Source of the DNA: Candidatus Cloacimonadota bacterium | GTDB taxonomy: Bacteria > Cloacimonadota > Cloacimonadia > Cloacimonadales > TCS61 | DNA length: 64,000 bases | NCBI GenBank assembly: GCA_021735645.1 | Contig: JAIPGP010000003.1 | Span: 6,917 to 70,916 of the forward strand | Direction of reading: 5' to 3' | Part shown: one piece after another, positions 12,454-40,980 of the stretch | Position numbering within the stretch: position 1 is the stretch's first letter | Layout of the letters: each line of letters opens with the position of its first letter | Translations under genes and position numbers: made by a program | The notes under the pieces: generated by a model | The model's input: the letters and a program-made list of their open reading frames with translations, nothing else | Told to the model about the DNA's origin: nothing | The model's database searches: none

Positions 12454-13806
12454 CTAATTTTTGATTTCTTCCATCAGCTGCTCAACCTGTTGCTTAACTT
12501 CTATATTATCAGTAAGTTGACTCTTTATTAGCTTGATGGCGTGGATCACTGTAGTATGATCTTTTAACTTATAATAATTTGCTATTTCCTTTAACGATAA
12601 TGAGGGTATAAATAAATTGGATAAATACATTGCTACCTGACGCGGAAAGGCTATCTCCCGCTTACGGGTTTTCATAAATATCACTTCATTGCGAAGATTA
12701 TAAATATTGCAGACCCGCTTTCGCACCAGGTCAAGAGTTACCCGTGAATTATTCGGAGAAAACATATCCCGCAAAATGTCTTTTGCCAGTTCTATCGTGA
12801 TTTCTTCAGTTTTGATCCCCTTATAGCCTATCCAGGCTTGAATCTTCACCAGTGAACCTTCCAGTGCCCGCACATTTGAGGTGATATTCTCTGCTATATA
12901 CTGCAATACAGGCTCATTTAAATATATATTATCACGCTCCGCCTTTTTCTTTAATATTGCTACCCGCGTCTCAAAATTTGGCTGCTTCAAATCAGTCAGT
13001 AAGCCCCACTCAAAACGCGAAATCAAACGTTGCTCCAGCTCAGGTATATCCCGTGGCAAACGGTCACTAGTCAATATTATCTGCTTGCCATTCTCATATA
13101 AGGCATTAAAAGTATGAAAAAATTCTTCCTGAGTTCCTTCCCGTTTGGATAAAAACTGTATGTCATCAATCAGTAAAACATCAAAATAGCGGTATTTATT
13201 CCTGAACTTATCCATTGTATTACTGCGGATACCTTCTATCATATTATTGGTGAATTGCTCCGTCGTTATATAATATACTTTCTTGTTCTCATGCAGATCA
13301 AGTACCATATGACCTATTGCCTGCATCAAATGCGTTTTACCCATACCGGAATTGCCATAGATAAATAATGGATTGTAGGTGTTGCCAGGTGATTCTGCCA
13401 CTGCTTCGGCAGCCGAACAGGCAAATCGATTATTACCTCCAACCACGAAATCCTTGAATTTGTAATTCTGATTTAACTGCGGATACTGCTCCAGAGACAC
13501 TGACGACTTCCCGGTAAATGACTCATCTCTGGTTGCTTCCGGTTTTGCATAATTTACACTATTGACAAATTTTACTTTGTAGCGCTGGTCGAATAATGTA
13601 TTGCAAATCTCAGAAATTATCAGGCAATAATTCTTATTTAAGTATTGGGCAATAAATTGCGTTGGTACATGAACTGTCATCTCATCATTTTCAAATTCTC
13701 TGATCTTCGTCTCTTGAAACCAGGTGCGGTAAGTCTGCTCATTTACATGCTCCTGCAATACTCCCAATACCTGACTCCATACTCTCTCTTTACTGTGCAT
13801 TTTCAC
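12454..13806 (-). CDS. dnaA: Chromosomal replication initiator protein DnaA
   Basis: 450 aa. AAA+ Walker A GNSGMGKTHL, Walker B LLIDDIQF, and a C-terminal DNA-binding domain (DHTTVIHA). Confidence 0.95.
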   Translation of the reverse strand: MKMHSKERVWSQVLGVLQEHVNEQTYRTWFQETKIREFENDEMTVHVPTQFIAQYLNKNYCLIISEICNTLFDQRYKVKFVNSVNYAKPEATRDESFTGKSSVSLEQYPQLNQNYKFKDFVVGGNNRFACSAAEAVAESPGNTYNPLFIYGNSGMGKTHLMQAIGHMVLDLHENKKVYYITTEQFTNNMIEGIRSNTMDKFRNKYRYFDVLLIDDIQFLSKREGTQEEFFHTFNALYENGKQIILTSDRLPRDIPELEQRLISRFEWGLLTDLKQPNFETRVAILKKKAERDNIYLNEPVLQYIAENITSNVRALEGSLVKIQAWIGYKGIKTEEITIELAKDILRDMFSPNNSRVTLDLVRKRVCNIYNLRNEVIFMKTRKREIAFPRQVAMYLSNLFIPSLSLKEIANYYKLKDHTTVIHAIKLIKSQLTDNIEVKQQVEQLMEEIKN

Positions 13807-14400
13807 CTTCGTATAATTTTTTTATCCACATTATACTTATCACAATGATATAGTTAAATCATTATGAAATAATAATATATATTAGATCGGAGAGTTATCC
13901 ACATCCTGCAAACTCTCTTGTGGATAACTTTGTAATACACCCATCTCACCTGTCAAATTGTGTTACCAATTTCTTATGTCAAGATAAGAAAATTTAGACT
14001 CTATTTTCACCTTTATCTTCTAATTAAATTACTAAATTGCTGATATATAATATGATAAATTATTTATTACCCCAGGCTGAAAACAGGATTATCGCACTTA
14101 ACTGCTGATATATAAAACCTTATAACTTATTAAGCAGCAATTTTGCCTTTTTGCTACTTAGACCTACTCAGTTAATTTTATAACTCTGTCTAAACTTTCT
14201 ATCATCCCATGCTTAACTCCTAAACAATAGTAATAATTTTTTCCTGTTAGAAAAATATTTTTTTTTTGTGATTTTCTCTTATTATCAGCAATAATAATTC
14301 ATTACCCAATTCTTCTTCTTCTTCCTTTTTTTTATCACTTGCCTAATTATTATATTTTTATGAAAATAGATGTGTGCTTTCTAACAAACCGAGATTTAAG
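13807..14400. other. Probable oriC core (DnaA boxes plus AT-rich unwinding region)
   Basis: Three perfect consensus boxes: TTATCCACA at 13822-13830 and 13895-13903, and TGTGGATAA at 13919-13927. These are followed by a very AT-rich stretch containing a duplicated 13-mer, TGCTGATATATAA, at 14038-14050 and 14103-14115. Gene-strand switch nearby. Confidence 0.7.
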
Positions 14401-14613
14401 ATATCCTTAATTGCCCTTTTTCAAATATTAATGAAAATTATTTCTTCAACTGATGGCACCCCGACTACTCAGAATTATAATAAGGTAAAATTATGCTTTA
14501 TTGTTCTGATTATTATGAACCTGAAATCTACTGGATATTAAAGCAGGCAATTATGTTAGATTAGCGACTCTGGGCAATAATATGGATAATGAACAATTAC
14601 CAGATAATATGAC

Positions 14614-14645
14614 AAAAAAAAGGCACTGATGGTAACATCAGTGCC
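14614..14645 (-). terminator. Rho-independent terminator of the 86-aa ORF
   Basis: Stem GGCACTGATG (14622-14631) / CATCAGTGCC (14636-14645), loop GTAA. An A8 run on the plus strand gives a U-tract on the minus-strand transcript. Confidence 0.75.
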
Positions 14646-14679
14646 TGCGAGATTAATCAGTTTTTCCTTTTTGCCGGAC

Positions 14680-14940
14680 TTATTCGTCTTCAGGAGGAAC
14701 TATATAATAATCTCCATCAATTTCTACGATTACATAACCGTCTTCTGTAACTGCGATAAATATGTATTCAGTATCCTCCAGACTTTCTAAAGAAAGTACA
14801 CCAATACATTGTGCAACCAGGTTTTTTATTTCCTGATCAGTTTTATTACTTGACGGATCATTACTTACAGATATTGTTGGTGCTGCCATGGCAGATAACG
14901 TGATAATAAGGGCTATAACTAAAGTTATGAGTTTTTTCAT
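14680..14940 (-). CDS. Small secreted protein, unknown function
   Basis: 86 aa with a signal peptide (MKKLITLVIALIITLSAMA) and an acidic C-terminus. Has its own terminator. Divergent from the ECF-like sigma gene. Confidence 0.6.
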   Translation of the reverse strand: MKKLITLVIALIITLSAMAAPTISVSNDPSSNKTDQEIKNLVAQCIGVLSLESLEDTEYIFIAVTEDGYVIVEIDGDYYIVPPEDE

Positions 14941-15064
14941 CTTGATCTCCTTGTCTTAATTTTTCTTCTCTCTATATATATAGTCCGGGAAAATAGCGAA
15001 GTGTGACAACACCACGCAATATTTTTTTATTTTTTATCACTTTTTTTTTTAAAAGGGGAAAAAA

Positions 15065-15997
15065 ATGGAATTTAATGAAGGATTTGTTCAGCAGCAATAT
15101 CAAGCAGCATATAATTATGCCCTGTATAAACTGGGGAATAGTAGTCAGGCAGAAGATGTTGCCGCCCAAACAGTTAACCTGTTTATTTTGAAGAGCGACA
15201 CCATAAATTCAGATAAATTTAATGCCTGGATTCGCTCTACCTGCCTAAATTACTGCCGGAAATATTATGATAATACAAAAAAGGAAAATTTTTTACAAAA
15301 AGGACTGCGTGAAAGCTTAATTAATTTTTTCGGGGTGGAGCATGATGGCAATTTAACTGAGAATTTCCGGCAATCCATGGAGAATCTGGATGAATTGGAA
15401 GCAAGGTCGCTGGTTCTTTACTTTAATTGCGGGCAGAATATCAAGAAAATGTCTGAAGTGACTGGTGAGAGTCATGTAAGTCTTAGAAAACGGATATCAC
15501 GCATAAAGATGAAATTGAAAGCCGAGACCTATAAAAATCTGGGTTATATTGCTACTAAGAAAATAATTGTTCCTAAACTGCATGAGGCAATTATCCAGTT
15601 TGTGCGCCGGCTGAAAAATAACATTGAAAATAATACTATTGATAAGATGTTTTATTACTTCTCAGAATCTAATACACAGAATTTTAATCCTGATTTTGAT
15701 ATTCAAAAGATCAAAGATTATGAAGTTATTCTCTGTGATGGTAAATATAAGATTTATCTTTTTTATTTGGATTCCCAGCAGCATATCAATAATATCATCT
15801 TTTCATTTTTCCTGAATGATAAAAATCAGTTGAAGATATCAGGACTGCCTAAAAAACAAAGAAAACTTGCTAAAATAACTAAGAGCACCGAGTCCGCCCG
15901 GGAATTATCATCTCTTTTAGAGAAATACCCCGAAAACCGCCAGGGACTGATCAAAATTCCCCAGGAGGTTATGCAGAAACTCACTGAGAGCGCCTGA
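15065..15997 (+). CDS. ECF-type sigma-70 family factor with ~150-aa C-terminal extension
   Basis: Region-2-like segment AEDVAAQTVNLFILKSD...FNAWIRSTCLNYCRKYY. Region-4 HTH LDELEARSLVLYFNCGQNIKKMSEVTGESHVSLRKRISRIKMKLK. Residues ~160-310 match nothing I recognise. Confidence 0.65.
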   Translation: MEFNEGFVQQQYQAAYNYALYKLGNSSQAEDVAAQTVNLFILKSDTINSDKFNAWIRSTCLNYCRKYYDNTKKENFLQKGLRESLINFFGVEHDGNLTENFRQSMENLDELEARSLVLYFNCGQNIKKMSEVTGESHVSLRKRISRIKMKLKAETYKNLGYIATKKIIVPKLHEAIIQFVRRLKNNIENNTIDKMFYYFSESNTQNFNPDFDIQKIKDYEVILCDGKYKIYLFYLDSQQHINNIIFSFFLNDKNQLKISGLPKKQRKLAKITKSTESARELSSLLEKYPENRQGLIKIPQEVMQKLTESA

Positions 15998-16260
15998 TAT
16001 AGAATTCACCTTTATTTTCAGGTGCGCTTAGAACCTTGGTATTTTAATATATGAGCGGTTTATCTGTAGAAATTATTTATTCATATAAGAATAAATAATA
16101 AAATTATTTACTTTACTTAATAATTGTCGATTTTTGTGACAAGTATATTTTCTATTTGCCGTTGAGGAAAACAAATGATAAACAGGAAAACGTTAGACAA
16201 AGAAAAAAGCTGTAACTACCAATAATAATTATTAAATATTAATTAATTTAAAAAAACTGT

Positions 16261-21361: not shown

Positions 21362-22288
21362 TTATACCAGGTTAATATAGTCCTGCAGACGCCGATCAAA
21401 GATATTGAGCCGAAATGCCTGGGACAGCAGCTCAGATATTGACCTGTAAAACAAAGCAGGTGTGTTAGTTACAATGTAATAAAACTTTCTGTCTTCCTCA
21501 TAAATAGGATTTTCCAGGTTAGTGAAGTGCGTTCCGGCAAAGGTGACACCAGCTTCTCCGGCAGCGTCTATCACCAGGCAGCCTGGTTTCAGCAGACGTT
21601 GATCTTCTCTGCTTAGTACCGGCTGAGATGGATCGTCCAGTTTAATACCAGAAACTATTATATCCCAAAGCCCCAGGGTGTATTTGAAGTCTTTTAATGT
21701 CCGTCTATAAAACATTCGCACTTTTGCACCTAACTGGGAAGAAAACTTGAAAGCTCCCTGGGCTACGTTACCGGTTCCCAGCACAGCAATGCGAGTTTGT
21801 GGTGTGATCAATATCCCATGTGACAGGGTGGCATGATAGATGGCAGCATACCCGGCCATCACCGAGTTTTCCCAGCTAAAATAATCCTGCACCCATTTCA
21901 CAGGGACAATTTTATCCCGATGATAAAGTCTGGTTTTTATATCAGTATCAATTATATATAGGTCTTTTTGCAGAAATAGAGTATCAAAAAAATCTTTGCC
22001 GGCAGCTTGTGGTTGTTGCCCGCCGATAAAAACCTGACGATCCCGCACGAGTTCATAATCTTCTGTTTCAATTGGTTTCAAGCTGAAAATACCATCACAG
22101 GAGGCAAATATTTCTTTGCGATTGCGTATGCGTGCACCTCGATTTAAATATTCAATATCTTCTATGCCCAGTGAACTTCCATAACCTTTCTCAAAGTAAA
22201 GCTCATCAATTACCCCACCGATATCCTCGGGTAATAAAACTACTCTTTTTTCACCAGGTGACTGCGGTTTTATAAATCCAATTTTCAT
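21362..22288 (-). CDS. Alanine dehydrogenase/PNT-superfamily NAD(P)-binding protein (N5-(carboxyethyl)ornithine-synthase-like size and layout)
   Basis: 308 aa. MKIGFIKP...EKRVVLLPEDI N-terminus and a Rossmann GxGxxA motif (VLGTGNVAQGA). The assignment to a CEOS-like subgroup is from memory of family architecture only. Confidence 0.45.
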   Translation of the reverse strand: MKIGFIKPQSPGEKRVVLLPEDIGGVIDELYFEKGYGSSLGIEDIEYLNRGARIRNRKEIFASCDGIFSLKPIETEDYELVRDRQVFIGGQQPQAAGKDFFDTLFLQKDLYIIDTDIKTRLYHRDKIVPVKWVQDYFSWENSVMAGYAAIYHATLSHGILITPQTRIAVLGTGNVAQGAFKFSSQLGAKVRMFYRRTLKDFKYTLGLWDIIVSGIKLDDPSQPVLSREDQRLLKPGCLVIDAAGEAGVTFAGTHFTNLENPIYEEDRKFYYIVTNTPALFYRSISELLSQAFRLNIFDRRLQDYINLV

Positions 22289-30934: not shown

Positions 30935-31010
30935 AATTCATCCTTCATCTGAATTCTCAGTTCCATAAATTGAAAATGTAAAAAAATGTAAATATTTTTT
31001 TTGTAAAAAT

Positions 31011-31036
31011 AAAAGCCCGAACTAGTTCGGGCTTTT
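31011..31036 (-). terminator. Terminator of the seven-gene operon
   Basis: AAAAGCCCGAAC-TA-GTTCGGGCTTTT palindrome directly after the stop of the last aconitase-family gene. T-rich sequence follows on the minus-strand transcript. Confidence 0.65.
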
Positions 31037-31058
31037 AATTAATTATAAGCACTTATTA

Positions 31059-32837
31059 TTAATTTTTAACTATCCAGTTGACTAAACCCTTTGCCTGGAA
31101 GATTTCCAGCAGGGCGGGGGGTAGGGGTGGGAATGAGAAATCTTTGCCAGCTACTGTAACCAGTCCTTTTTCCAGATCAACATTTACAATATCACCGGGA
31201 TTATAAGCATTCACTACTTCAGGCAAAACGATGATGGGTAATCCCTGATTAACTGAAGAGCGATAGAAAATACGGTTAACTGATTTCACAATGACAGCTT
31301 TCACGCCGGCATGAGCAAGTCCTACAGCGGGATGCTCACGGGACGAGCCGCAGCCGAAGTTTTCTCCGGCAATCATGACATCACCAGACTGCACATTATC
31401 TTTGAAGCCGGGATCAAAATCTATGAAGAGATAGGGCATGATCGCTTCCGGATCTGAGCTGAGAACCTTATAGGTAAGATTTCCGGCAAACATCTGGTCA
31501 GTATTCAGATTATCCACATCAGCATAATTCCAGGTGCCGTCCAGTCTGCGGTTTTCTGTTTCAGGAATAGTTACTGTGGCAGACTGATCATGCTGGAAGG
31601 GGAATTTATTATTTGCCTTAAAGCCTCTCAGGTCTGTGATGGCGCCTTTAAGAGCAGAATAGGCGACCGTGGCTGGAGAAGCGAGATAGACAAAGGAATT
31701 CTTATTACCCATGCGTCCTAAAAAATTACGATTAGCAGTGGAAAGGACATTATATCCATCAGCCGGAATACCTTGTCCTGTACCCAGGCAGGGACCGCAG
31801 GAAGAGCTAAGGATCACAGCACCGGCATTCATCATTTTGGCGATGAGCCCTTCTTCCATAGCCTGGAGATAAATTTCCTTTGAAGCGGGGCAAACCAGAA
31901 GTTGGAAGCCTTCAGGAATTTTTTTGCCATCCAGTATCTGGGCAGCAATGCGCAGGTCTTCCAGGCGACCATTTGTGCAGGTACCAATGAGAGCCTGATG
32001 AATGGGAGTGCCTTCAACTTCGGAAAGAGCCTTCACATTATCAACGTGATGAGGACAGGCGACCAGCGGGAATATCTCGCTGAGGTTGATATCGATTTCC
32101 TGCAAATAATTAGCGTAGGGATCAGCCCAGTTACCGTTTTCAATAGTCTCAACGCCCAGGAATTCAGCCAGGACGTTATCCGGTGGGAACACAGCATTTT
32201 TAGCGCCCATTTCTGAGGCTAAATTAGCTAAAGTCATTCTCTGGGCAATAGAGAGAGATTTCACTCCATCCCCATGAAATTCAATTGAGCAGTAATTAGC
32301 TCCGGCAGAACCAATCATCCCGATTATCCAGAGAGAGATATCTTTGGCATATACCCCTTTGGAAAGTGAGCCGGTAAGAGTGATTTTTATTGAGTCCGGA
32401 ACTCTGAACCAGGTTTCGCCTCTTTTCCAGAGACCGGCAGACTCAGTTCTATCAATTCCGGCAGCCAGAGCATTGAAAGCTCCAGCAGTGCAGGTATGAC
32501 TATCGGAACCTACAATGATCATTCCCGGCTTAGCATGATAGCTCATTACCTGATGACAGATGCCATCGCCAACGTCATGGAATTTTTTGATTCCCTGGAC
32601 TTTCACAAAGTCACGGATGGCCTGATACTGGTTAGCCAGTTTATCATTAGTAGGTGGAGCATTGTGATCGAGAACAACCAGAAGCTGGTTTGGATCGGCA
32701 ACTTTGGTACCGCCCATCTTTTTGAATGTGTTGGCGATACTGGCAGTATTATCATGTGTAAGCACAATATCCGGTCTGGCAAATACAATAGAGCCGGCTT
32801 TAGCTCCAAATATCTTTTCTACATAAGTTTTTCCCAT
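31059..32837 (-). CDS. Aconitase-superfamily dehydratase, large and small subunits fused (paralogue B)
   Basis: 592 aa. Fe-S ligand motifs GTCTNGR and SSCGPCLG. The small-subunit part carries ENFGCGSSREHPA. LeuC/LeuD-HacA/HacB-like rather than AcnA/B-like in size. Confidence 0.85.
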   Translation of the reverse strand: MGKTYVEKIFGAKAGSIVFARPDIVLTHDNTASIANTFKKMGGTKVADPNQLLVVLDHNAPPTNDKLANQYQAIRDFVKVQGIKKFHDVGDGICHQVMSYHAKPGMIIVGSDSHTCTAGAFNALAAGIDRTESAGLWKRGETWFRVPDSIKITLTGSLSKGVYAKDISLWIIGMIGSAGANYCSIEFHGDGVKSLSIAQRMTLANLASEMGAKNAVFPPDNVLAEFLGVETIENGNWADPYANYLQEIDINLSEIFPLVACPHHVDNVKALSEVEGTPIHQALIGTCTNGRLEDLRIAAQILDGKKIPEGFQLLVCPASKEIYLQAMEEGLIAKMMNAGAVILSSSCGPCLGTGQGIPADGYNVLSTANRNFLGRMGNKNSFVYLASPATVAYSALKGAITDLRGFKANNKFPFQHDQSATVTIPETENRRLDGTWNYADVDNLNTDQMFAGNLTYKVLSSDPEAIMPYLFIDFDPGFKDNVQSGDVMIAGENFGCGSSREHPAVGLAHAGVKAVIVKSVNRIFYRSSVNQGLPIIVLPEVVNAYNPGDIVNVDLEKGLVTVAGKDFSFPPLPPALLEIFQAKGLVNWIVKN

Positions 32838-32852
32838 GATTTTCTCCTTCCT

Positions 32853-34664
32853 TTATCCGAAGATTCCACCCTTGTGGTAGATTTCCATTTGCACATCAGA
32901 GAATGGTTCTGCCTGAATATTCTTATTATCATTCAGATTTGTGATAGTACCTGAGGCAAAATCCACCCTGATAATATCACCATCTTTGAGGTTCAAAGCC
33001 GTAATATCACTGTAAGTCATAATTGGAAAGGCGGCATTAATGGCATTACGCTCATAAATAGCACCAAATGATTCGGCAATAATTGCCTGAACACCCAGGG
33101 ACTTAAAGCAGTCCACTGCCTGTTGCCTGCTGCTGCCGGAGCCAAAATTCTTCTGCACAACTATGATGTCACCAGGTTGAGATTTTTTGGCAAAATCCTC
33201 ATATCCAGCCAGGTTATCGAAAGTATATTGTCCCATTTCTGCCAGATCAGTAATAGTGAGGTAGCGATTATGAAAGATCATATCTGTATCGATATTATCT
33301 TCTTTAATGAACCAGACGCGACCTTCTATCATTTCAGGTTTTGCAACTTTCGGAGCAGATTTAGCAGTTTTTCCCGTCTGCTGTTGAGACTCAGGTTTGG
33401 TAAAGAGAGCCGGTTTGGCAGGAATGTTATCCGGAGTAGTGATATAGCCAGCCACAGCGGAAGCTGCCACAGTAGCGGGAGATGCCAGATAGACGCTGCC
33501 TTTTCCCTGTTTACCGGGGAAATTACGGTTTCCGGTAGAAATAGTGATCTCGCCAGCACCGTTCTGACCGATCTGTCCGGCAGCACAGCCGGCACATCCG
33601 GCATTACCCACCAGGGCGTCGGCATCTTTAAATATTTTGATAAGTCCTTCCTGCAGAGCCTGATTCCAGACATCATCTGTGGAAGGAACTATCTTGAGCA
33701 TAACACCGGGAGCGACTTTATGATCTTTCAGAATAGCAGCAGCTTCACGCAGGTCTTCTATTCTGCCATTAGTGCAGCTGCCAATGAAAGCACTGTCAAT
33801 TTTCACTTTATCCAGAGCTTTTACGGCAATAGTGTCATGAGGTTTACCCGGTTGAGAAGTGCGGGGAATAAAGGTGCCGAAATCCAGATTCAATACCTGT
33901 TCATACTCGGCATCAGCATCAGCCTGCACCAGTTCGAGTTCACGATCTGCCATCATCGATGAAAACTTCATGATTTCGGCATTGGGAGTAAAGAAGATAG
34001 CAATACATCCCATCTCAGTAGCCATACTGGAGATAGTGATGCGTTCATCAAGGGTGAGTTTATCAATATCTTCACCATAAACTTCCACGGCATAACCCAA
34101 AAGGGTATTTGCCCCAAATTCTGCCAGCAGATTAAGAGCAATGTCTTTGGCTGCCACATTAGCGGGGCGTTTTCCATTAATGGTTAATTTCACAGATTTA
34201 GGAACTTTGAACCAGACTTTACCATTTGCCCAGGTTGCGGCAATATCTTGATCGCCCATTCCCTGACCAAAAGCACCAACAGCACCCAGGATATTAGCAT
34301 GAGAATCTGTACTCACTGCTGTGGAACCGGAATAGGCATAACCTTTGTCCATCAGGATATGGGTGCCGATCCCGCTATTTATATCAAACACTTTGAGTCC
34401 CTGTTCACGGGCATATACACGGCAAATCTGCTGATTAACGGCATATTTCTGATCGCTGCCACCCGGATTACAGTCAAAGGTGAACATTGTCAGCTTTGGA
34501 TTTGCTAAGGTCAGGTTATTATTCCGCATGTTTTTTACAACATTAGCACCACCAAAATCACGTGCTACGCGGGCATCAATAAAAATATCTACAATATCTC
34601 CGGGTTTCACAGATTTTTTATCACTGTGATTCACCAGGATTTTTTCTATAAGAGTTAAACCCAT
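32853..34664 (-). CDS. Aconitase-superfamily dehydratase, large and small subunits fused (paralogue A)
   Basis: 603 aa. GSCTNGR and NAGCAGCAAG cysteine motifs. A Gln/Lys-rich linker precedes the small-subunit part, which carries KNFGSGSSRQQA. Confidence 0.85.
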   Translation of the reverse strand: MGLTLIEKILVNHSDKKSVKPGDIVDIFIDARVARDFGGANVVKNMRNNNLTLANPKLTMFTFDCNPGGSDQKYAVNQQICRVYAREQGLKVFDINSGIGTHILMDKGYAYSGSTAVSTDSHANILGAVGAFGQGMGDQDIAATWANGKVWFKVPKSVKLTINGKRPANVAAKDIALNLLAEFGANTLLGYAVEVYGEDIDKLTLDERITISSMATEMGCIAIFFTPNAEIMKFSSMMADRELELVQADADAEYEQVLNLDFGTFIPRTSQPGKPHDTIAVKALDKVKIDSAFIGSCTNGRIEDLREAAAILKDHKVAPGVMLKIVPSTDDVWNQALQEGLIKIFKDADALVGNAGCAGCAAGQIGQNGAGEITISTGNRNFPGKQGKGSVYLASPATVAASAVAGYITTPDNIPAKPALFTKPESQQQTGKTAKSAPKVAKPEMIEGRVWFIKEDNIDTDMIFHNRYLTITDLAEMGQYTFDNLAGYEDFAKKSQPGDIIVVQKNFGSGSSRQQAVDCFKSLGVQAIIAESFGAIYERNAINAAFPIMTYSDITALNLKDGDIIRVDFASGTITNLNDNKNIQAEPFSDVQMEIYHKGGIFG

Positions 34665-34673
34665 CTCATCCTC

Positions 34674-35219
34674 CTAAACCTGCAGTCTGCTTTTAAAGGG
34701 TAAAAAAGTCATAAAATCGGCATGGTGAACTATATATGCTTCTGTAGTGCGTTTAATCATATCACCTTCGCCAGCGTGTGCTGCGATAATATGGGAGACA
34801 GGAGCCGGCACACCGCATTCTTCCGCCAGTGACACTCCACTGAAGGGATGACGCAGATATTTACCATAAGAGCCCTGTACGGCTTTGCCGTTTTCATCCA
34901 GAACATATTCCACCAGCTTGCCCACATCGCAGAGTATGGCACCAGCGATCAGCACATCCATATCAACCGGCAATTCACCATGATAGGAGTTATTTACTAT
35001 ATCACCAGCTTCTTTGGCAATATGAACCACGCTGCGTTTATGATCCATAAAAGTAACTTTTAGATCAGGACCGCAGAGCAGAGTGAAAGGAATACGCATC
35101 AGGTCTTCAGCTGTTAGCGCACTTCTTTCCAGTGCTATTTCCCAGGTCTTTTCAGTCTGGGCACGCAGTTTTTCATCTTTAATCCATTCCAGTTCGGGCC
35201 ATAATTCCTTAATTGTCAT
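34674..35219 (-). CDS. HD-superfamily domain protein with Cys-Asp in place of the His-Asp dyad
   Basis: 181 aa. Layout H60...(AILCDVGK, C97-D98)...H124...H143/H148...HHAD168. Codon 34931..34929 reads TGC on the minus strand. Confidence 0.65.
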   Translation of the reverse strand: MTIKELWPELEWIKDEKLRAQTEKTWEIALERSALTAEDLMRIPFTLLCGPDLKVTFMDHKRSVVHIAKEAGDIVNNSYHGELPVDMDVLIAGAILCDVGKLVEYVLDENGKAVQGSYGKYLRHPFSGVSLAEECGVPAPVSHIIAAHAGEGDMIKRTTEAYIVHHADFMTFLPFKSRLQV

Positions 35220-35234
35220 AATTCCTCCCTATGC

Positions 35235-36422
35235 TCACAGAGCTGCGATTATGGCATCTGTCATCTGTTGTGTACTGGCTGCACCTTTGGAGATAACATC
35301 TGGCGTACCTCTCATTTTAAGCATGTCATAAGTGCGAACTTTGCCTTCTTCCACTACTTGTGCCACTGCAGCTCTGATCTTGGCAGCCTTTTCAGTTTCA
35401 CCAATGTGATCCAGCATCATGCAGGCAGATAATATCATAGCAATAGGAGATACTATTGATACTTCATAATCAGCATACTTGGGGGCAGAACCGTGAGTTG
35501 GTTCAAAAATAGCCACTTTTTGGCCAATATTAGCACTGCAGACAAAACCCAGTCCACCTGTAAGCCCGGCAAAGCCATCAGAAACGATGTCACCAAACAT
35601 ATTTCCGGCAATAATTACTCCATAATTTTCCGGGTCCTTGGTCAGCCACATCATCTGGGCATCAATATTAGTATAATTAAAGGTAATGTCGGGATAATTC
35701 TTAGCTAATTCACGGCAGATAGCCAGCATCATACCAGAAGTTTCGCGAATCACATTTGGTTTTTCACAAAGTGTAACTTTTTTATAACCGAATTCTTTTG
35801 CATATTCAAAAGCCTGTTCACAGATACGCAGAGAATATTTTTTAGTGAAGATGCGTGTACTGATAGCCAGTTCTTCGCGGGGGCACCAGCCGAAATTTTT
35901 CACAAATTTAGGATGGGTCATTAAGCCTTCATACACTTTATCAGGAGGGTTTGTCCATTCCACCCCACCATACAGGCCTTCGGTATTTTGACGGAAGATA
36001 ACTACATCTACTTCTGGTTCTTCGATAGTATCACCAGCGCCGTGCCGGATAAAATTCAGTGGATTACCTTTAAATGTTTTACAGGGACGCTGGCAGATAT
36101 CCAGCAGAAAGTGCTGACGCAAGCCTACGATAGGGCTGTAATAGACAAAGCCTTTATCATTTAATTCAGGACTTAATTCTTTAGCTGCTTCAGATTTTGG
36201 TTTGGAAGTGATAGCACCAAAAAGGCTGATGCCATGTTTTTCCAGTAAGTCTAAGGTTCTTTGGGGAAGAGGATTTCCTTCTTTACACCAGAATTCCCAG
36301 CCGATATCGGCATGTACATATTCTGCATCAAATCCTACTGCGTCCAGAACGCGAATTGCTTCGGGTAATACAGCTTTTCCAATGCCATCACCAGGCATAG
36401 TTACAACGGTTCTTTTTGCCAT
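35235..36422 (-). CDS. Isocitrate/isopropylmalate-dehydrogenase-family beta-decarboxylating dehydrogenase (Icd-like)
   Basis: The start is set at the Met with a GGAGGA RBS; the track ORF extends to 36434. Motifs TMPGDGIG, RQNTEGLYGGVEW, NMFGDIVSD and THGSAPKYA. Confidence 0.85.
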   Translation of the reverse strand: MAKRTVVTMPGDGIGKAVLPEAIRVLDAVGFDAEYVHADIGWEFWCKEGNPLPQRTLDLLEKHGISLFGAITSKPKSEAAKELSPELNDKGFVYYSPIVGLRQHFLLDICQRPCKTFKGNPLNFIRHGAGDTIEEPEVDVVIFRQNTEGLYGGVEWTNPPDKVYEGLMTHPKFVKNFGWCPREELAISTRIFTKKYSLRICEQAFEYAKEFGYKKVTLCEKPNVIRETSGMMLAICRELAKNYPDITFNYTNIDAQMMWLTKDPENYGVIIAGNMFGDIVSDGFAGLTGGLGFVCSANIGQKVAIFEPTHGSAPKYADYEVSIVSPIAMILSACMMLDHIGETEKAAKIRAAVAQVVEEGKVRTYDMLKMRGTPDVISKGAASTQQMTDAIIAAL

Positions 36423-36438
36423 TGTGTCCTCCATATTT

Positions 36439-37998
36439 TTATTTAGTTTTTACTTTTCTAACGCTATCTATCACAGTGCCATCTACCCATTTGATAATGG
36501 CAACAATATCATCTTCCAGTTCCGGTTTGGCAGGTTTACCGCAAATAGCTTCTGCTTCTGCTTTAAGCTGTTCAATAGTTTTAATTGGTAAACCGGAATG
36601 TCTGGTTTTATCTATCAAATCTTTCCTCAGCGGATTTATGGCAATTCCACGTTCTGTAACTATCACGTCCACCATACTGCCAGGACCCACCAGTGTGGTT
36701 ACCTGATCTAAGATAACCGGCATCCGGTTACGGAAAAGAGGAATTGGTAAAATAGTACACTTGGCAAAAAGACAATTTTGCCAGCCACCAATACCATGCA
36801 GCAGTAAACCATCTGAATGAGTTATCACATTGCCATTAAAATTCACATCCACTTCCGTGGCACCTAAAACTACAACATCCATCATAGAAAGATAAAATCC
36901 TTTGCTATGATAATCATAAGTGTGGAACACTGATATAGCGTAATGATTATCATTTTTGTCCATTGATTCCACCGCATTATGATCAAAGGTTTGACCATCC
37001 AGCATGTACTCTAACTGACCTTCTTCCAGCATCTGCGTGCTGTATTTTGTGGTGCCGCCTATAGACCAGCGAGCTCTCCAGCCCTTTCGCTTTAATATCT
37101 CATGGATATATATTCCAATCGAAAGCGACGTTCCGCCTGCTCCTGCCTGAAAACTGAATTCATCATAGATCAAGCCGGCTGCTTCAATGAATTTTGCTGT
37201 TAACTCTGCTATCAAAAGCCGGTCAGGACTTTTGGTTATCTGTGTAGTACCGCTCACTATCATTTCAGGGATTCCTATTTTATCTACCACTACCACATAA
37301 TCAATATAATTGCCATGAAGCTGCATGGGAATACAGGGGAAAGGTACTAGATTATCTGTTACTATTATGGATTTATGAGCATACTGGCTGTCTGCCAGTC
37401 CAAAACCCAGACCGCCACAGGCGGAAGGTCCATGCAAACCATTTGCATTACCAAAGGCATCAGCTTCCGGAGCTGCCAGAACAGCAATATCGATAATCAC
37501 TTCGCCATCTTCCACTGCCTGATAACGACCACCATGAGAACGGAGTATGGCAGTTCCCCGCATCTTTCCCATCGAGCAGTATTTACCCAAAGGTCCGTTC
37601 ATACTGCCCTCTATGTGGTGTATTGTACCATCATCCAGATATTTAATGATCTCGGCATGGCAGGGGAAAGAGGCAGATGGGAACCAGACCAGGTCTTTGA
37701 TCTTCATCTCACTGGCTATCTTGAATACTTCATTTGCCACCAGATCACCATTTCGCAGATGATGATGGGTACTGATCACCATTCCATCTTTCAATCCAGC
37801 TGCCTGCAAAGCTTCTTTCAAATTAGGAACTACTTTATTGCCGTCTGCCGGATAATCTTCGGCGCAGACAAGCGGCGGACCATAGCGATGACCTTCCGGT
37901 CTATATTTACCGTTTCCCAGATAGGGAACCTGTTTTTTACCATTCACTTCTGCAGGTACGGTGCGTCCTACGAAATTTTTTACTAATTCGGCTGCCAT
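36439..37998 (-). CDS. citF: Citrate lyase alpha subunit (citrate CoA-transferase)-type protein
   Basis: 519 aa, collinear by eye with CitF. Matching segments: STHHHLRNGDLV, RSHGGRY, FGNANG, FQAGAGGTSL, LGATEVD and VTERGIAINP. Confidence 0.85.
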   Translation of the reverse strand: MAAELVKNFVGRTVPAEVNGKKQVPYLGNGKYRPEGHRYGPPLVCAEDYPADGNKVVPNLKEALQAAGLKDGMVISTHHHLRNGDLVANEVFKIASEMKIKDLVWFPSASFPCHAEIIKYLDDGTIHHIEGSMNGPLGKYCSMGKMRGTAILRSHGGRYQAVEDGEVIIDIAVLAAPEADAFGNANGLHGPSACGGLGFGLADSQYAHKSIIVTDNLVPFPCIPMQLHGNYIDYVVVVDKIGIPEMIVSGTTQITKSPDRLLIAELTAKFIEAAGLIYDEFSFQAGAGGTSLSIGIYIHEILKRKGWRARWSIGGTTKYSTQMLEEGQLEYMLDGQTFDHNAVESMDKNDNHYAISVFHTYDYHSKGFYLSMMDVVVLGATEVDVNFNGNVITHSDGLLLHGIGGWQNCLFAKCTILPIPLFRNRMPVILDQVTTLVGPGSMVDVIVTERGIAINPLRKDLIDKTRHSGLPIKTIEQLKAEAEAICGKPAKPELEDDIVAIIKWVDGTVIDSVRKVKTK

Positions 37999-38000
37999 CT

Positions 38001-39224
38001 TTAGTCCTCCTTCAGAAATTCATCACGCCAGTTTGCGTCTATCTTTTTTAACTTAAGTGCTATATCAATTGTCCGTTGAGCACGTTTCACTACTGGTGGA
38101 TCAATCATCTTAGAGCCTAAGGCGACAACACCCAGTCCCTGCTCTTCAGCTATTATAAAGGCATTAACAATTTTCTTTGCCTTCTCTATCTCACTAACAT
38201 CCGGAGCATAGTTCTCGTGTATCACGGGTATCTGGCGAGGATGAATACAACCCATGCCATCGAAACCGAGCTGCTTGGAATTCTGCACATTAGCTGCCAG
38301 TCCTTCCATGTCTGATACATCGCTGAATACACTGTCTATGGGCTGAATTCCTGCTGCCCGGGCGGCATTAACCACTTGACAACGGGCAAAAAATGTCTCA
38401 TTACCTGCCAGAGTACGCTGCGTTCCCAGATCTGCAGTATAATCTTCCAGTCCTATAGCCATACCTACTATATAGGGTGAAGAGGAGGCAATTTCATAAG
38501 CTTTGATCACTCCCAGAGCACTCTCAATTATCGGCATCAGCCAGATTGGGTGCTCGATATGATATTTATGCTTCATTTCACCAATCACTTCTTCCAGTAC
38601 TTCTATCTGCTCAGGGTCTTCACATTTGGGTATTAATAACAGGTTCACATTATGCGGCAGAACAAATTCCAGGTCTTCCAACCCTTTTGGTATCTGGTTA
38701 ATTCTCACCATGCGTTCTGCTCCATAAAAATCAAGAGCCCGCAAAGTATTGCGCACCAGAAACCGCGTTTCATACTTCTTTGCCGGAGCCACCGAGTCTT
38801 CCAGATCAAGAATAATCCCATCTGGCTGATGCAAGCCGGCATTTATTGCCAGCTTAGGAGTATTGCCCGGCAGGTAAAGCCTGCTTCTACGGTAGCGGTC
38901 TTTTTCCGTGCTATACAGGTTTTGTGCCAGCATTTCGGGTAGATATTCCTTATCAGTTGTAATAATTGCTCTGATAGCTGCTTCCAGTCGTGCCTGCAAT
39001 ACAAAATTCAAAGCCCCTGTGTCTATTACTTCCAGAAGACAATGCTTGATATCATAAAAATCCAGGACTTTCCGGCATTCCTGACGGATATTTTCGCCAT
39101 ATAGCACTTCAACTTTGCTATCAAGATTGATTTCGATTCCCCCGGTTTTAGTAATTTCCAGAGATACAAAACAGTCACTGCGGACTGAACTTCCAGTGTT
39201 ACCGGCAGTTGCTTTTCCTGTCAC
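38001..39224 (-). CDS. Fusion of citrate-lyase acyl carrier protein (CitD-like, N-terminal ~90 aa) with citrate lyase beta subunit (CitE/HpcH-HpaI fold)
   Basis: The N-terminus AGNTGSSVRSDCFVSLEI...IDTGALNFVLQARLEAAIR resembles CitD, including a Ser-Asp at the prosthetic-group position. Residues ~112-407 (RRSRLYLPGN...DLEDSV...) are CitE-like. Confidence 0.8.
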   Translation of the reverse strand: MTGKATAGNTGSSVRSDCFVSLEITKTGGIEINLDSKVEVLYGENIRQECRKVLDFYDIKHCLLEVIDTGALNFVLQARLEAAIRAIITTDKEYLPEMLAQNLYSTEKDRYRRSRLYLPGNTPKLAINAGLHQPDGIILDLEDSVAPAKKYETRFLVRNTLRALDFYGAERMVRINQIPKGLEDLEFVLPHNVNLLLIPKCEDPEQIEVLEEVIGEMKHKYHIEHPIWLMPIIESALGVIKAYEIASSSPYIVGMAIGLEDYTADLGTQRTLAGNETFFARCQVVNAARAAGIQPIDSVFSDVSDMEGLAANVQNSKQLGFDGMGCIHPRQIPVIHENYAPDVSEIEKAKKIVNAFIIAEEQGLGVVALGSKMIDPPVVKRAQRTIDIALKLKKIDANWRDEFLKED

Positions 39225-39237
39225 AATCTACCTCCTT

Positions 39238-40536
39238 TTATCTATTTAAATATTTTTGCAAGTATTGATATTTATCTTCCAGCTTCCCTAAATGGGCAAT
39301 AACTGCTGGCTGTATTTCCGCCGGCAGTATTGAGACTGCGATCGGCTGGCTGTAGTCATTATCCAGCATAGCCGGCACAAAAGGCTGCAAGGCAGAATTA
39401 AAGAAATCAGATGCTTCCCTGGAAAATTCGCAAGGCAGATTATCAATCGCGCATACTGCAAAACCTGCACCCTTAAAACCATCTGTCAGCGAATCTGTAA
39501 CCGGATTATAAATGAATACCGGATTATCCGGCATGGTTACTTTTCGCGTTGCCTCGATAGAACCCTCTATGTCACAGGTAATATCACCGATCATGATCAG
39601 TTTTTGCTGCTCACCCTGCAATTTACCCAATTCGCTGTTCTTCAAAAATACCGGATAACCAGGTGCCCAGTAAATTCCGCTCATATACATTGTACAATAG
39701 GGCAGATACTGCTCCATCTTTGATTTATAATCCTTACCATTTACAAAGTAATCACTTAATTGAAATTCGCCACCATCTTTTCGCTCTACTAAATGCTCTT
39801 CTCTGAAAATCGAGAGATACAGGCGATTGGATTCATGACTTATCTCCAAACCGGCTAAAGCTTCTGGTGACACTTCCTTGATCGGAAAGGCTTCTAATAT
39901 TTCCTGACAGCCTATCGAGACATTGCCATAACCTAATAGACATATATTAAATGGACAAATTTCTGCTGGCAGACCTTCCCTTTCGATTTCTTTGCCTATT
40001 TTACGCAATTCCGCCAGGCACTGTTCAAGTGATTCATACTGATAGCTCTGTTTCACCTTCAAAAAAGGTGTTTCTATGCCATATTCCTGTAGATAACGCT
40101 GTCCTGCTGCCCATAAAGCGTCTACCATGCCGGCATTTCCGGCAAACTTGCCAAAAAATACCAGCCGCCTGCCCTGGTCATCTATGATCTTTTCATAATC
40201 CATTAAAGTGCTGCCGGTATCCAGAATATGCTGCAGTAGAGGCATATTATAATCCTGCCCCTTGATCGTGTGTGAAAAAAACAGATGTGGCTTACCAGGA
40301 ATTATTCCTTCCAGCGGTATCTCTTTCACACCAATGATAAGATCGCAATTGCTCAAGTCCTCAGCTAATTCTGCCCCGGCAGCCAGGTATGCTTCATTTT
40401 TGTATATCCGTGTTTCCGAAGGCTGAATTGTCACCTGATAGCCCTTATCGATAAGTTTCTTTACTGATGGAGGATTCATCGGCACTCGACGTTCCCAGCG
40501 ATTCTTGGTCTCTTTCATTATCCCTAATCTTTTCAT
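39238..40536 (-). CDS. LOR/SDH-type (lysine-2-oxoglutarate reductase-like) AlaDH/PNT-fold dehydrogenase
   Basis: 432 aa. WERRVPMNP...GYQVTIQPS...FFSHTIKGQDYNMPLLQHIL...LMDYEKI...FGKFAGNAGM matches my recollection of the conserved LOR domain of bifunctional LOR/SDH enzymes. First gene of the operon. Confidence 0.7.
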   Translation of the reverse strand: MKRLGIMKETKNRWERRVPMNPPSVKKLIDKGYQVTIQPSETRIYKNEAYLAAGAELAEDLSNCDLIIGVKEIPLEGIIPGKPHLFFSHTIKGQDYNMPLLQHILDTGSTLMDYEKIIDDQGRRLVFFGKFAGNAGMVDALWAAGQRYLQEYGIETPFLKVKQSYQYESLEQCLAELRKIGKEIEREGLPAEICPFNICLLGYGNVSIGCQEILEAFPIKEVSPEALAGLEISHESNRLYLSIFREEHLVERKDGGEFQLSDYFVNGKDYKSKMEQYLPYCTMYMSGIYWAPGYPVFLKNSELGKLQGEQQKLIMIGDITCDIEGSIEATRKVTMPDNPVFIYNPVTDSLTDGFKGAGFAVCAIDNLPCEFSREASDFFNSALQPFVPAMLDNDYSQPIAVSILPAEIQPAVIAHLGKLEDKYQYLQKYLNR

Positions 40537-40794
40537 AGCTACCTCATATTATTTTTTTAATTATTATATTAAGTACCCTTGCCAAAACAAAGGTAATATT
40601 AATGGGTCTCGTAATGATCTTTTAGCGGTCAGGCTATCTTTATTTTGATTTTAATTTACCTGACTGCTAATGATACTCTTCTTTACTATTGAATTAGTTC
40701 GTCAAGTTTTATCACACAATTCCCCTTTTTTTGTTAAGATTATCGCAATTTTCCCCAGGTGCTCAGATCAAATAAATCCATCAGGAAAGAATAA

Positions 40795-40850
40795 GCTGCA
40801 GCAATAAAGCACAATCTCATAAAAAGGTGTATTTGCTTTGTTGTTCCTGG
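40795..40850. repeat. Palindromic element, copy 2 (diverged, inverted relative to copy 1)
   Basis: GCTGCAGCAATAAAGCAC ... TGCTTTGTTGTTCCTGG. The loop AATCTCATAAAAAGGTGTAT matches the reverse complement of the copy-1 loop (AATCTCACAAAAAAATGCGGGTAC). A 12-bp stem forms if two G-U pairs are allowed on the plus-strand RNA. Confidence 0.65.
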
Positions 40851-40980
40851 AGTATTACTTTTTAGTAATGTTTGAAGGGCGTAAAAGGTTAATCAGAATA
40901 ATTGACAGCAAAAGTCTTGACTATAAAAAACAGTTGGAGAAATTAACAAAGTGAAAAAACAGGCAAAACAGGAGGCGCTG

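Follow-up and report, generated by a model that had tools for sequence, protein, structure and literature searches.

An operon of Cloacimonadota links lysine-ketoglutarate reductase, an acyl carrier protein-dependent lyase, and relatives of homoisocitrate-pathway enzymes in a candidate module for 2-oxoacid chain shortening

The window analyzed here, a 64,000-nucleotide stretch of contig JAIPGP010000003.1 from a Candidatus Cloacimonadota bacterium, carries an operon of seven genes (g1 to g7) on its minus strand, at window positions 31059-40536. In order, these genes encode a predicted lysine-ketoglutarate reductase (LKR), the two subunits of an acyl carrier protein (ACP)-dependent lyase of the citrate lyase type, a beta-decarboxylating dehydrogenase of the Icd/LeuB superfamily, a small HD-fold protein, and two fused dehydratases of the aconitase family. 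We tentatively read this operon, with somewhat less than even confidence, as a catabolic module for 2-oxoacid chain shortening that is tied to lysine breakdown in Cloacimonadota, in which 2-oxoadipate would be reductively carboxylated, isomerized, and cleaved to acetate and 2-oxoglutarate. Overall, the 2-oxoacid elongation triad would operate in reverse, and an ATP-independent, ACP-dependent lyase would replace the synthase.

An original prediction for this locus had described seven minus-strand genes separated by 2-15 nt, a non-coding upstream region, and a terminator, all of which are borne out by the open reading frame (ORF) listing and by hairpin analysis. The seven ORFs are consecutive, occupy the coordinates given in Table 1 (NCBI protein entries MCF7911032-38), and are spaced, from g1 to g7, by gaps of 13, 2, 4, 15, 9, and 15 nt. 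Their domain content likewise matches the identities first assigned to them (LOR-like, CitD-CitE, CitF, IDH-family, HD, and two aconitase-family proteins). GGAGG-like ribosome-binding sites lie ahead of six of the seven genes, and the terminator has a 12-bp stem (five of its pairs are G-C) capped by a 4-nt loop, and TTTTT comes next on the minus strand. No ribosome-binding site precedes the annotated ATG of g4, and a 399-aa product of exactly this sequence is missing from the protein collection; because homologs begin with MAK or MSK where the second ATG lies, translation probably starts at that codon, 36422. The leader upstream of g1 contains no ORF and no Rfam match, and it does not fold better than shuffled sequence (z-score -0.96). 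A riboswitch or leader RNA, including the lysine riboswitch, was sought with Rfam in this leader and in seven related loci, and none was found. By consensus match only, the leader holds a TAnnTTTG element of the Bacteroidetes type (40595-40588, 52 nt 5' of the g1 ATG) and a sigma-70-like site (40949-40920).

Table 1. Features of the operon in the window, followed by features of related loci (prefix L; coordinates within each locus).
Feature	Coordinates	Strand	Remarks
g1, LKR/saccharopine dehydrogenase (L-lysine-forming) family	39238..40536	-	432 aa
g2, CitD-CitE fusion	38001..39224	-	407 aa, GTG start
g3, CitF-type acetyl-ACP:carboxylate transferase, lyase alpha subunit	36439..37998	-	519 aa
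g4, beta-decarboxylating dehydrogenase, Icd/LeuB/HICDH superfamily	35235..36434	-	399 aa as annotated
g5, small HD-fold protein	34674..35219	-	181 aa
g6, fused LeuCD/HacAB (aconitase) family dehydratase, LeuC/LeuD-like	32853..34664	-	603 aa
g7, second fused dehydratase, HacA-like large domain	31059..32837	-	592 aa
Leader/promoter region, non-coding	40537..40950	-	414 nt, upstream of g1
Bidirectional intrinsic terminator at operon end	31010..31037	.	stem-loop and T-run
Tandem CitF loci	L036 11223-14563; L042 2670-6026; L044 1306-4510; L046 11214-14895		
Diverged HD orthologs in the same slot	L082 15422-15988; L083 15575-16144; L087 15453-16022; L069 5638-6162		
Stand-alone Icd-HD pairs	L084 8819-10552; L086 8793-10552		CCA-adding/PolyA-polymerase gene upstream in both
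Operon insertion sites	L088 7305-7918, 9704-11815; L066 13000-15081; L005 2773-4794; L063 13910-15229		

The arrangement recurs in many other genomes. Synteny was followed by searching the best 80 loci by tblastn with the seven window proteins, by clustering the ORFs of 81 loci, and by scanning recurrent or intercalated neighboring ORFs with Pfam. The gene order of the window is found in at least 12 other contigs, with proteins 56-90% identical, and hence does not reflect chance. In most Cloacimonadota the operon comprises eight genes, and the order SDH-LKR-CitDE-CitF-Icd-HD-Acn-Acn, in which SDH denotes saccharopine dehydrogenase, occurs in three contigs of 3.7-4.0 Mb, the size of complete genomes, and in a fourth, metagenome-assembled genome (MAG). 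Genes for the Icd-like dehydrogenase, the HD protein, and one or two dehydratases adjoin CitDE-CitF in Cloacimonadota, and the module is present in rearranged form in some Bacteroidota (L011, L018, L059, and L081), Marinimicrobia (L016), WOR-3 (L069), and Chloroflexota (L075 and L017). The CitD-CitE fusion family was detected in more than 588 species genomes, a lower bound obtained by scanning one genome per species, and is 60-70% identical across phyla; its hosts include Cloacimonadota, many Bacteroidales, Neomarinimicrobiota, WOR-3, Chloroflexota/Anaerolineales, and Desulfuromusa.

The connection to lysine comes from the first gene of the operon and its upstream neighbor in related genomes. 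Although AlaDh_PNT_N is the sole Pfam match of g1, the protein aligns along its whole length (residues 4-428) with the LKR domain of human AASS (8e8u, 260 bits), and the N-terminal part of yeast LYS1 matches it at 67 bits. The motifs GVKE and FSHTIK, which we take to carry the catalytic Lys and His of LKR, are kept between g1 and the human domain. Judged from these alignments, g1 is an LKR homolog, and it has at least 120 homologs of its own, mostly in Cloacimonadota, at 56-86% identity. The original prediction had tied its LOR-like gene to citDEF as parts of one module, and the surveyed loci support this linkage: the LKR gene stands immediately 5' of CitDE in nine of the 10 Cloacimonadota-labeled loci with sufficient upstream sequence, and in no other phylum. 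The gene before LKR in most of these loci is an SDH of the Sacchrp_dh_NADP/Sacchrp_dh_C type, and SDH, LKR, and the module share a single operon in 11 loci (L003, L004, L006, L063, L064, L066, L073, L082, L083, L087, and L088). The presence of SDH ahead of LKR in most Cloacimonadota strengthens the link to lysine. To our knowledge, LKR and SDH are linked to aconitase- and Icd-family enzymes solely through 2-aminoadipate and 2-oxoadipate, that is, in the alpha-aminoadipate pathway.

The carbon-carbon bond enzyme of the module is encoded by g2 and g3. In g2, a CitD-type ACP (residues 4-86; PF06857, 59.4 bits against a cut-off of 25.1) is fused to a CitE-type acyl-ACP lyase (residues 110-389; HpcH_HpaI, 179 bits). 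The protein stays under the cut-offs of the dedicated citrate lyase models, with 264.3 against 443.4 for TIGR01588 (citE) and 59 against 63.5 for citD. Ser16-Asp17 and the motifs LEDSV and GLEDYTAD are invariant in 15 homologs, and we equate the context of Ser16 with that of the prosthetic-group Ser14 of Klebsiella CitD. The g3 product scores 444 bits against Pfam CitF and matches two putative citrate lyase alpha chains in the PDB (2hj0, 390 bits; 1xr4, 371 bits), and a CitF gene lies directly 3' of CitDE in every locus with enough downstream contig. In several Bacteroidales loci, one CitDE gene is followed by two tandem CitF paralogs that share 64-69% identity with g3 (Table 1), which hints at two acyl-acceptor specificities operating on one shared ACP-lyase.

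No citC, citG, citX, citrate or carboxylate transporter, oxaloacetate decarboxylase, or regulator gene was found within +/-10 kb in any of the 88 loci, and citC, citG, citX, and a citrate carrier were also not found among the Pfam-scanned ORFs of the window, which include nearly all of those of at least 90 aa. Taken one by one, the genes bear names from routine automated annotation (citrate lyase ACP, citrate lyase subunit alpha, 3-isopropylmalate dehydratase large subunit, HDIG protein) that would suit an ordinary citrate-fermentation locus that happens to lie beside unrelated leucine, tricarboxylic acid (TCA) cycle, and lysine genes, with the adjacency having no pathway meaning. We consider this very improbable, as the gene order is kept at 56-90% identity in many genomes and is rearranged across five phyla, the genes are closely spaced and end at a single strong terminator, the usual accessory genes are missing nearby, and no protein reaches an equivalog cut-off. 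The locus hence differs from an ordinary citrate-fermentation locus, as the original prediction had supposed. For a module without a transporter, the tricarboxylate substrate would most simply arise inside the cell, a 2-oxoacid being reductively carboxylated and the product then isomerized.

A dehydrogenase suited to such a carboxylation is encoded by g4, which scores 256 bits against Pfam Iso_dh. Its best NCBIfam models are AksF_Meth (269.4, cut-off 500) and AksF2 (265.6, cut-off 540), both far from threshold. Against Icd models it reaches at most 237.6 where the cut-offs are at least 484; the best of these is PRK08997 (237.6 against 510), and prok_nadp_idh gives 150.7 against 567. Its sequence is 43% identical to AksF of M. 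jannaschii and 41% to Thermus homoisocitrate dehydrogenase (HICDH); the values for Thermus LeuB and E. coli Icd are 35% and 31%. All reference sequences (M. jannaschii AksF, HacB, and LeuD; Thermus HICDH and LeuB; E. coli Icd) were confirmed by exact database look-up, and M. jannaschii LeuB was not used as a reference, the sequence considered for it having no exact database match. Family placement of g4 by score was dropped, since a phmmer search puts it at equal distance from the NAD-dependent isocitrate dehydrogenase (NAD-IDH) 6lky (201 bits) and AksF (194 bits).

The substrate loop and the cofactor motif of g4 are more telling. The loop, YYSPIVGLRQ, is conserved in 14 homologs and fits the AksF pattern Y-x-S-P-I-[IV]-x-L-R (YKSPIITLRK in AksF itself, as against IRSLNVALRQ in E. 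coli Icd and YRSVNVTLRQ in an NAD-IDH). In E. coli Icd, Ser113 and Asn115 hold the gamma-carboxylate of isocitrate; the equivalent of Ser113 is kept in g4, whereas that of Asn115 is Ile in g4 and in 13 homologs. The cofactor motif APKYA is that of the NADP-dependent E. coli Icd, in place of the APDIA of AksF, Thermus HICDH, and Thermus LeuB, so that g4 is probably NADP(H)-dependent, and the K-Y motif is consistent with a reductive role. By its model scores and these features g4 is not a bona fide Icd, and an AksF-like specificity for (homo)isocitrate is modestly favored.

The two dehydratases, g6 and g7, are paralogs that are 32% identical to each other; both contain Aconitase and Aconitase_C domains and join a large subunit of the LeuC/HacA type to a small one of the LeuD type in a single chain. 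Each retains three Cys ligands of a [4Fe-4S] cluster (CTNGR and CAGC in g6, CTNGR and CGPC in g7), and g6 contains the DSH motif. The g7 protein passes both hacA_fam (475, cut-off 385.7) and PRK00402 (487, cut-off 385) and falls under HacA_Meth (416 against 550), and g6 is above the cut-off of PRK00402 (400.8) and just under that of hacA_fam (378). The aconitase models are missed by both: the best of them, PRK07229, gives 382 for g7 and 291 for g6 against a cut-off of 612, acon_putative gives 294 and 244 against 719, and the AcnA models give at most 116 against cut-offs of at least 686. The best PDB match of g7 is the homoaconitase HacA of M. jannaschii (4kp2, 353 bits; LeuC 344), and that of g6 is LeuC of the M. 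jannaschii isopropylmalate/citramalate isomerase (258 bits; HacA 210). By their profile scores, g6 and g7 are not bona fide aconitases and belong to the LeuC/HacA type. Together with the scores of g4, this accords with the original prediction, which had hinged on Icd- and aconitase-family proteins that stand outside bona fide Icd and aconitase; the nearest families are archaeal AksF, HacA, and LeuC. In Marinimicrobia, Chloroflexota, and WOR-3, the counterpart of g7 is split into large- and small-subunit genes.

In HacB/LeuD enzymes the small-subunit loop sets the substrate preference, according to a statement in PMC7308503 that cites Jeyakanthan 2010. The corresponding loop is RYLTITD in g6 (compare YLVYT in LeuD), GNLTY[KQSN]V in g7, which resembles neither HacB nor LeuD, and GKYTYTVTD in the split small subunits of relatives. 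As far as sequence can tell, the specificity clues from g4 and from the dehydratase loops argue against isocitrate; for the dehydratases they single out no one substrate.

Combining these identities, the proposed route would begin with LKR, together with the SDH encoded upstream in most relatives, which would convert lysine and 2-oxoglutarate to glutamate and aminoadipate semialdehyde. Enzymes encoded outside the operon would then carry the semialdehyde to 2-oxoadipate by oxidation and transamination; an aldehyde:ferredoxin oxidoreductase and glutamate dehydrogenase, both reported in related MAGs (PMC8542988), could supply these steps. Next, the NADP(H)-type, AksF-like g4, with g5 as its presumed obligate HD-fold partner, would reductively carboxylate 2-oxoadipate to homoisocitrate, which the [4Fe-4S] dehydratases g7 and g6 would isomerize via cis-homoaconitate to homocitrate. 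Finally, CitF (g3) would move homocitrate onto the acetyl-ACP domain of g2, whose CitE domain would yield acetyl-ACP and 2-oxoglutarate. The net products would be acetate and 2-oxoglutarate, the latter replenishing the co-substrate of LKR, and by our own bookkeeping the full lysine route would be redox-neutral.

Among the conceivable substrates, the 2-oxoadipate/homocitrate series is best supported, on account of the LKR and SDH genes in the operon, the two dehydratases, and the AksF-like loop of g4. We also count for this series that g7 passes hacA_fam and has a methanogen homoaconitase as its best solved relative. In the alpha-aminoadipate pathway of fungi and Thermus, two aconitase-family enzymes are required between homocitrate and homoisocitrate (PMC3556520).

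The same enzymes could instead act one carbon lower, in the citrate series: 2-oxoglutarate from glutamate would be converted to isocitrate, citrate, and then acetate and oxaloacetate, giving an ATP-independent and redox-neutral branch of glutamate fermentation to which LKR and SDH are attached merely as users of 2-oxoglutarate and producers of glutamate. The module is self-contained and, lacking LKR and SDH, is spread over several protein-degrading anaerobic phyla, which suits so ubiquitous a substrate, CitF scores close to the citF cut-off, and g4 scores slightly higher against the NAD-IDH structure than against AksF, retains the Ser113 equivalent, and has an E. coli Icd-like insertion as well as the NADP motif. 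Published annotation, moreover, files CitF and CitD+CitE under "citrate degradation" (PMC8542988, supplement). Against the citrate series stand the Ile at the Asn115 position in all 14 homologs, the wide margins by which the Icd and aconitase equivalog models are missed, and the LeuC/HacA type of the dehydratases. Related Cloacimonadota, in addition, own a separate, canonical cluster of ATP-citrate lyase, AcnA, and Icd for citrate chemistry (PMC8542988). One aconitase would be enough for citrate, and LKR and SDH in the operon would go unexplained. On balance we hold the citrate series, which is the main rival to the homocitrate series, to be unlikely.

A third set of substrates is suggested by the dehydratase g6, which is nearest the M. 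jannaschii isopropylmalate/citramalate isomerase in both of its domains and whose YLTIT loop resembles LeuD. Here, 2-oxobutyrate would pass via 3-methylmalate and citramalate to pyruvate and acetate, or 2-oxoisocaproate via 3- and 2-isopropylmalate to 2-oxoisovalerate and acetate, with a lyase of the citramalate lyase type. A CitDEF-like citramalate lyase is known and provides a precedent, the CitE domain scores well short of the citE equivalog (264 against 443), and g4 has a hydrophobic Ile-Val at the Leu-Leu position of isopropylmalate dehydrogenase. This alkylmalate series is nonetheless improbable in our view: it does not explain the linkage to LKR and SDH, the S-P-I loop of g4 is that of AksF and not of Thermus LeuB, g7 is closer to HacA, and beyond redox balance there would be no evident energetic gain over direct oxidative decarboxylation.

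The direction of the homocitrate route is suggested by the lyase. Citrate lyase-type reactions favor cleavage at physiological concentrations, and we count for cleavage that the carbon-carbon bond enzyme is a lyase complex and that no HMGL-type synthase occurs in any locus. The reverse would be an acetate-dependent, thioester-sparing route of the alpha-aminoadipate type to lysine or 2-oxoadipate, with the CitDEF-type complex as a homocitrate "synthase" and SDH and LKR in the roles of LYS9 and LYS1. The gene set does parallel the fungal pathway, with two aconitase-family enzymes, an HICDH-like dehydrogenase, and LYS9- and LYS1-like enzymes, and, the equilibrium constant of citrate lyase being about 1 M, millimolar 2-oxoglutarate and acetate would permit micromolar homocitrate. 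However, aminoadipate reductase, LysW-type machinery, and an aminotransferase are found in no locus surveyed, the NADP-type motif of g4 is unlike that of the NAD-type HICDH references, and the lyase would offer little driving force; Gram-negative bacteria, furthermore, usually make lysine via diaminopimelate. A biosynthetic role accordingly seems to us quite improbable.

Several observations weigh against the catabolic homocitrate route itself. Neither an aminoadipate-semialdehyde dehydrogenase nor an aminoadipate aminotransferase is conserved near the operon or found in the window; more generally, the surroundings of the module in the loci surveyed show no conserved gene for an HMGL-type synthase, an aldehyde dehydrogenase, or an aminotransferase. 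A tblastn search of the window with the SDH of L082 gave no match, and L002, the nearest relative of the window, also has no SDH gene. In Bacteroidota, Marinimicrobia, WOR-3, and Chloroflexota, neither LKR nor SDH accompanies the six-gene module, so that its general substrate may be a commoner 2-oxoacid. The citC, citG, and citX genes for making and activating holo-ACP are not found in the 88 loci or in the window. As regards specificity, g3 falls only slightly under the cut-off of TIGR01584, the citF equivalog (491.9 against 501.45), g4 has Val at the position of Arg85 of Thermus HICDH and near-equal phmmer scores to NAD-IDH and AksF, the small-domain loop of g6 is LeuD-like, and the Arg of the methanogen HacB "YLRT" loop is absent from g6, g7, and the split small subunits.

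The small HD protein, g5, has no Pfam match and a weak match to TIGR00277 (HDIG, 30.8 bits); a PDB sequence search gave nothing useful and PADLOC nothing meaningful. An AF2 model (predicted local distance difference test, pLDDT, 80; predicted template-modeling score, pTM, 0.81) retrieves the HD-domain proteins YhaM (9h3f), Pfu 1xx7, and YfbR in Foldseek with probability 1.0 and TM-scores of 0.5-0.68, which identifies a generic HD fold. The family is about 80% identical across phyla, and an exhaustive HMMER search of 1.8 billion representatives returned about 900 representative clusters (895), in which the protein always stands alone at a length of about 180 aa and no informative domain fusion occurs. 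The original prediction had described a variant HD protein with a "CD" dyad. Such a dyad, C97-D98, is present in g5, but the Cys is not conserved, the position before the Asp being A, C, V, or I in close homologs, and the positional orthologs of Cloacimonadales (L082, L083, and L087) and WOR-3 (L069) retain an intact His-Asp. A conserved Cys-based metal site was hence rejected. With its dyad His replaced, g5 lacks the canonical H...HD...D metal motif, and the other candidate ligands H60, D98, H124, H148, and D168 are invariant. The His-Asp orthologs are 35-38% identical to g5 in loci where the other proteins of the operon are 56-81% identical, which indicates that the HD gene either evolves far more rapidly than its neighbors or has been exchanged for another.

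An isolated pair of Icd-like and HD genes with a 10-nt gap, apart from CitDE-CitF and the dehydratases, is found in Bacteroidales genomes of 4-5 Mb (Table 1). The HD gene is tightly coupled to the Icd-like gene or to the module, and a role as partner of g4 would fit this coupling. A role as substitute for CitG or CitX was rejected, given that in Bacteroidales the HD gene travels with Icd and not with CitDE-CitF.

Of the other genes near or inside the related operons, DAGK, sulfatase, MscS, SUI1, and RecQ genes are neighbors by synteny only, and toxin-antitoxin, Schlafen/AlbA_2, type IX secretion system (T9SS) M23, cation diffusion facilitator (CDF) transporter, and 23S-IVP protein genes are unrelated or mobile insertions. 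Insertions inside the operons of relatives (Table 1) comprise an NTP_transf_2/HepT toxin-antitoxin pair between CitDE and CitF, a T9SS-tailed M23 peptidase gene between CitF and Icd, and a Schlafen/AlbA_2 gene. In L059 (6060-7523, -) and L081 (13121-14581, -), the interval from CitF to Icd holds a gene for an M20-family peptidase or deacylase in opposite orientation; it may be incidental or may encode a pathway-linked deacylase.

The rest of the window is chromosomal housekeeping (dnaA, glnA, tyrS, mnmG/mnmE, ftsK, dxs, and the dnaK operon), and Pfam scans of nearly all other window ORFs of at least 90 aa returned housekeeping genes only. The dnaA gene (12454-13806, -) adjoins an AT-rich stretch with a GC content of 0.33 at 14-16 kb, where the GC skew switches sign and the cumulative skew is at its lowest; this part of the window (12454-16000) probably contains the chromosomal replication origin (oriC). 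A second, shorter gene of the AlaDh_PNT family (21362-22288, -; 308 aa), 17 kb from the operon, is flanked by tyrS and a TonB-dependent receptor gene. With weak matches to the N- and C-terminal domains and no NCBIfam equivalog, its product could be another opine- or saccharopine-type dehydrogenase.

All component families of the module are known, and each of four described systems resembles part of it. Like citrate lyase CitDEF (EC 4.1.3.6) and its citramalate lyase analog, it has an ACP with the prosthetic-group Ser context, a CitE-type lyase with Mg-binding E/D motifs, and a CitF-type transferase; here, however, CitD and CitE are fused, the CitE part scores 264 against 443, the genes are embedded among Icd- and LeuCD-type genes, and the accessory genes are not found nearby. 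With the methanogen coenzyme B enzymes AksA, AksD-E (HacAB), and AksF it shares the AksF loop and best model of g4, the proximity of g7 to HacA, and dehydratases of the archaeal LeuC/HacA type. It differs from them in having a lyase in place of the AksA-type synthase, an NADP-type motif, fused dehydratase subunits, and no HacB "YLRT" Arg, and in being hosted by a bacterial fermenter.

A further parallel is to the alpha-aminoadipate pathway of fungi and Thermus and to saccharopine catabolism of lysine, which proceeds through LKR and SDH in animals, plants, and some bacteria. Common to these and the Cloacimonadota operon are an LKR/LYS1-type enzyme, in relatives an SDH/LYS9-type enzyme, two aconitase-family enzymes, and an HICDH-like dehydrogenase, whereas the present cluster has no homocitrate synthase, aminoadipate aminotransferase, or aminoadipate reductase/semialdehyde dehydrogenase, and the presence of a lyase implies that its tricarboxylate part runs the other way. 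The reductive TCA branch of isocitrate dehydrogenase, aconitase, and ATP-citrate lyase follows the same sequence of reductive carboxylation, isomerization, and C2-releasing cleavage, yet the cleavage here would be independent of ATP and would yield acetate, not acetyl-CoA, and the enzymes are not orthologs of Icd and Acn. What is new is the combination, its implied direction, the Icd-HD pairing, and probably the specificity of the lyase.

The original prediction knew of no described pathway with this gene combination, and our literature searches likewise returned none; full-text searches for homocitrate lyase, for citrate lyase with saccharopine and homoaconitase, for reductive carboxylation of 2-oxoadipate, and for saccharopine in Cloacimonadota gave nothing relevant. 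The one published mention that we found concerns Cloacimonadota of Ace Lake, for which "citrate lyase (CitF, CitD+CitE)" is entered in a supplementary table under citrate degradation, without discussion and without a link to the neighboring genes (PMC8542988).

In its fullest form, which we regard as the more doubtful one, the proposal is of an anaerobic "reverse alpha-aminoadipate pathway" for lysine, built from an NADPH-dependent AksF-like dehydrogenase with a dedicated HD partner, two LeuC/HacA-type dehydratases, and a new ACP-dependent "homocitrate lyase" that restores 2-oxoglutarate for LKR. The core module might then serve H2-sensitive fermenters of several phyla as a redox-neutral shortening device, possibly iterative or promiscuous. 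If the homocitrate route is correct, Cloacimonadota would possess a new way of degrading lysine anaerobically, and possibly other amino acid-derived 2-oxoacids, that needs neither oxygen nor thioester activation and yields no net hydrogen. The route would add homocitrate lyase as a new lyase specificity, demonstrate that the elongation triad can be run backwards for catabolism, and give a role to the highly conserved, unannotated Icd-HD pair, which is present in thousands of environmental Bacteroidota and Cloacimonadota sequences. Even with 2-oxoglutarate and citrate as substrates, an ATP-independent reductive branch of glutamate fermentation made of non-orthologous enzymes would be a novelty. 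Anaerobic digesters and anoxic waters harbor abundant Cloacimonadota, and the carbon and redox models of these environments, which now file such genes as "citrate degradation" or "leucine biosynthesis," would change if the proposed route holds true.

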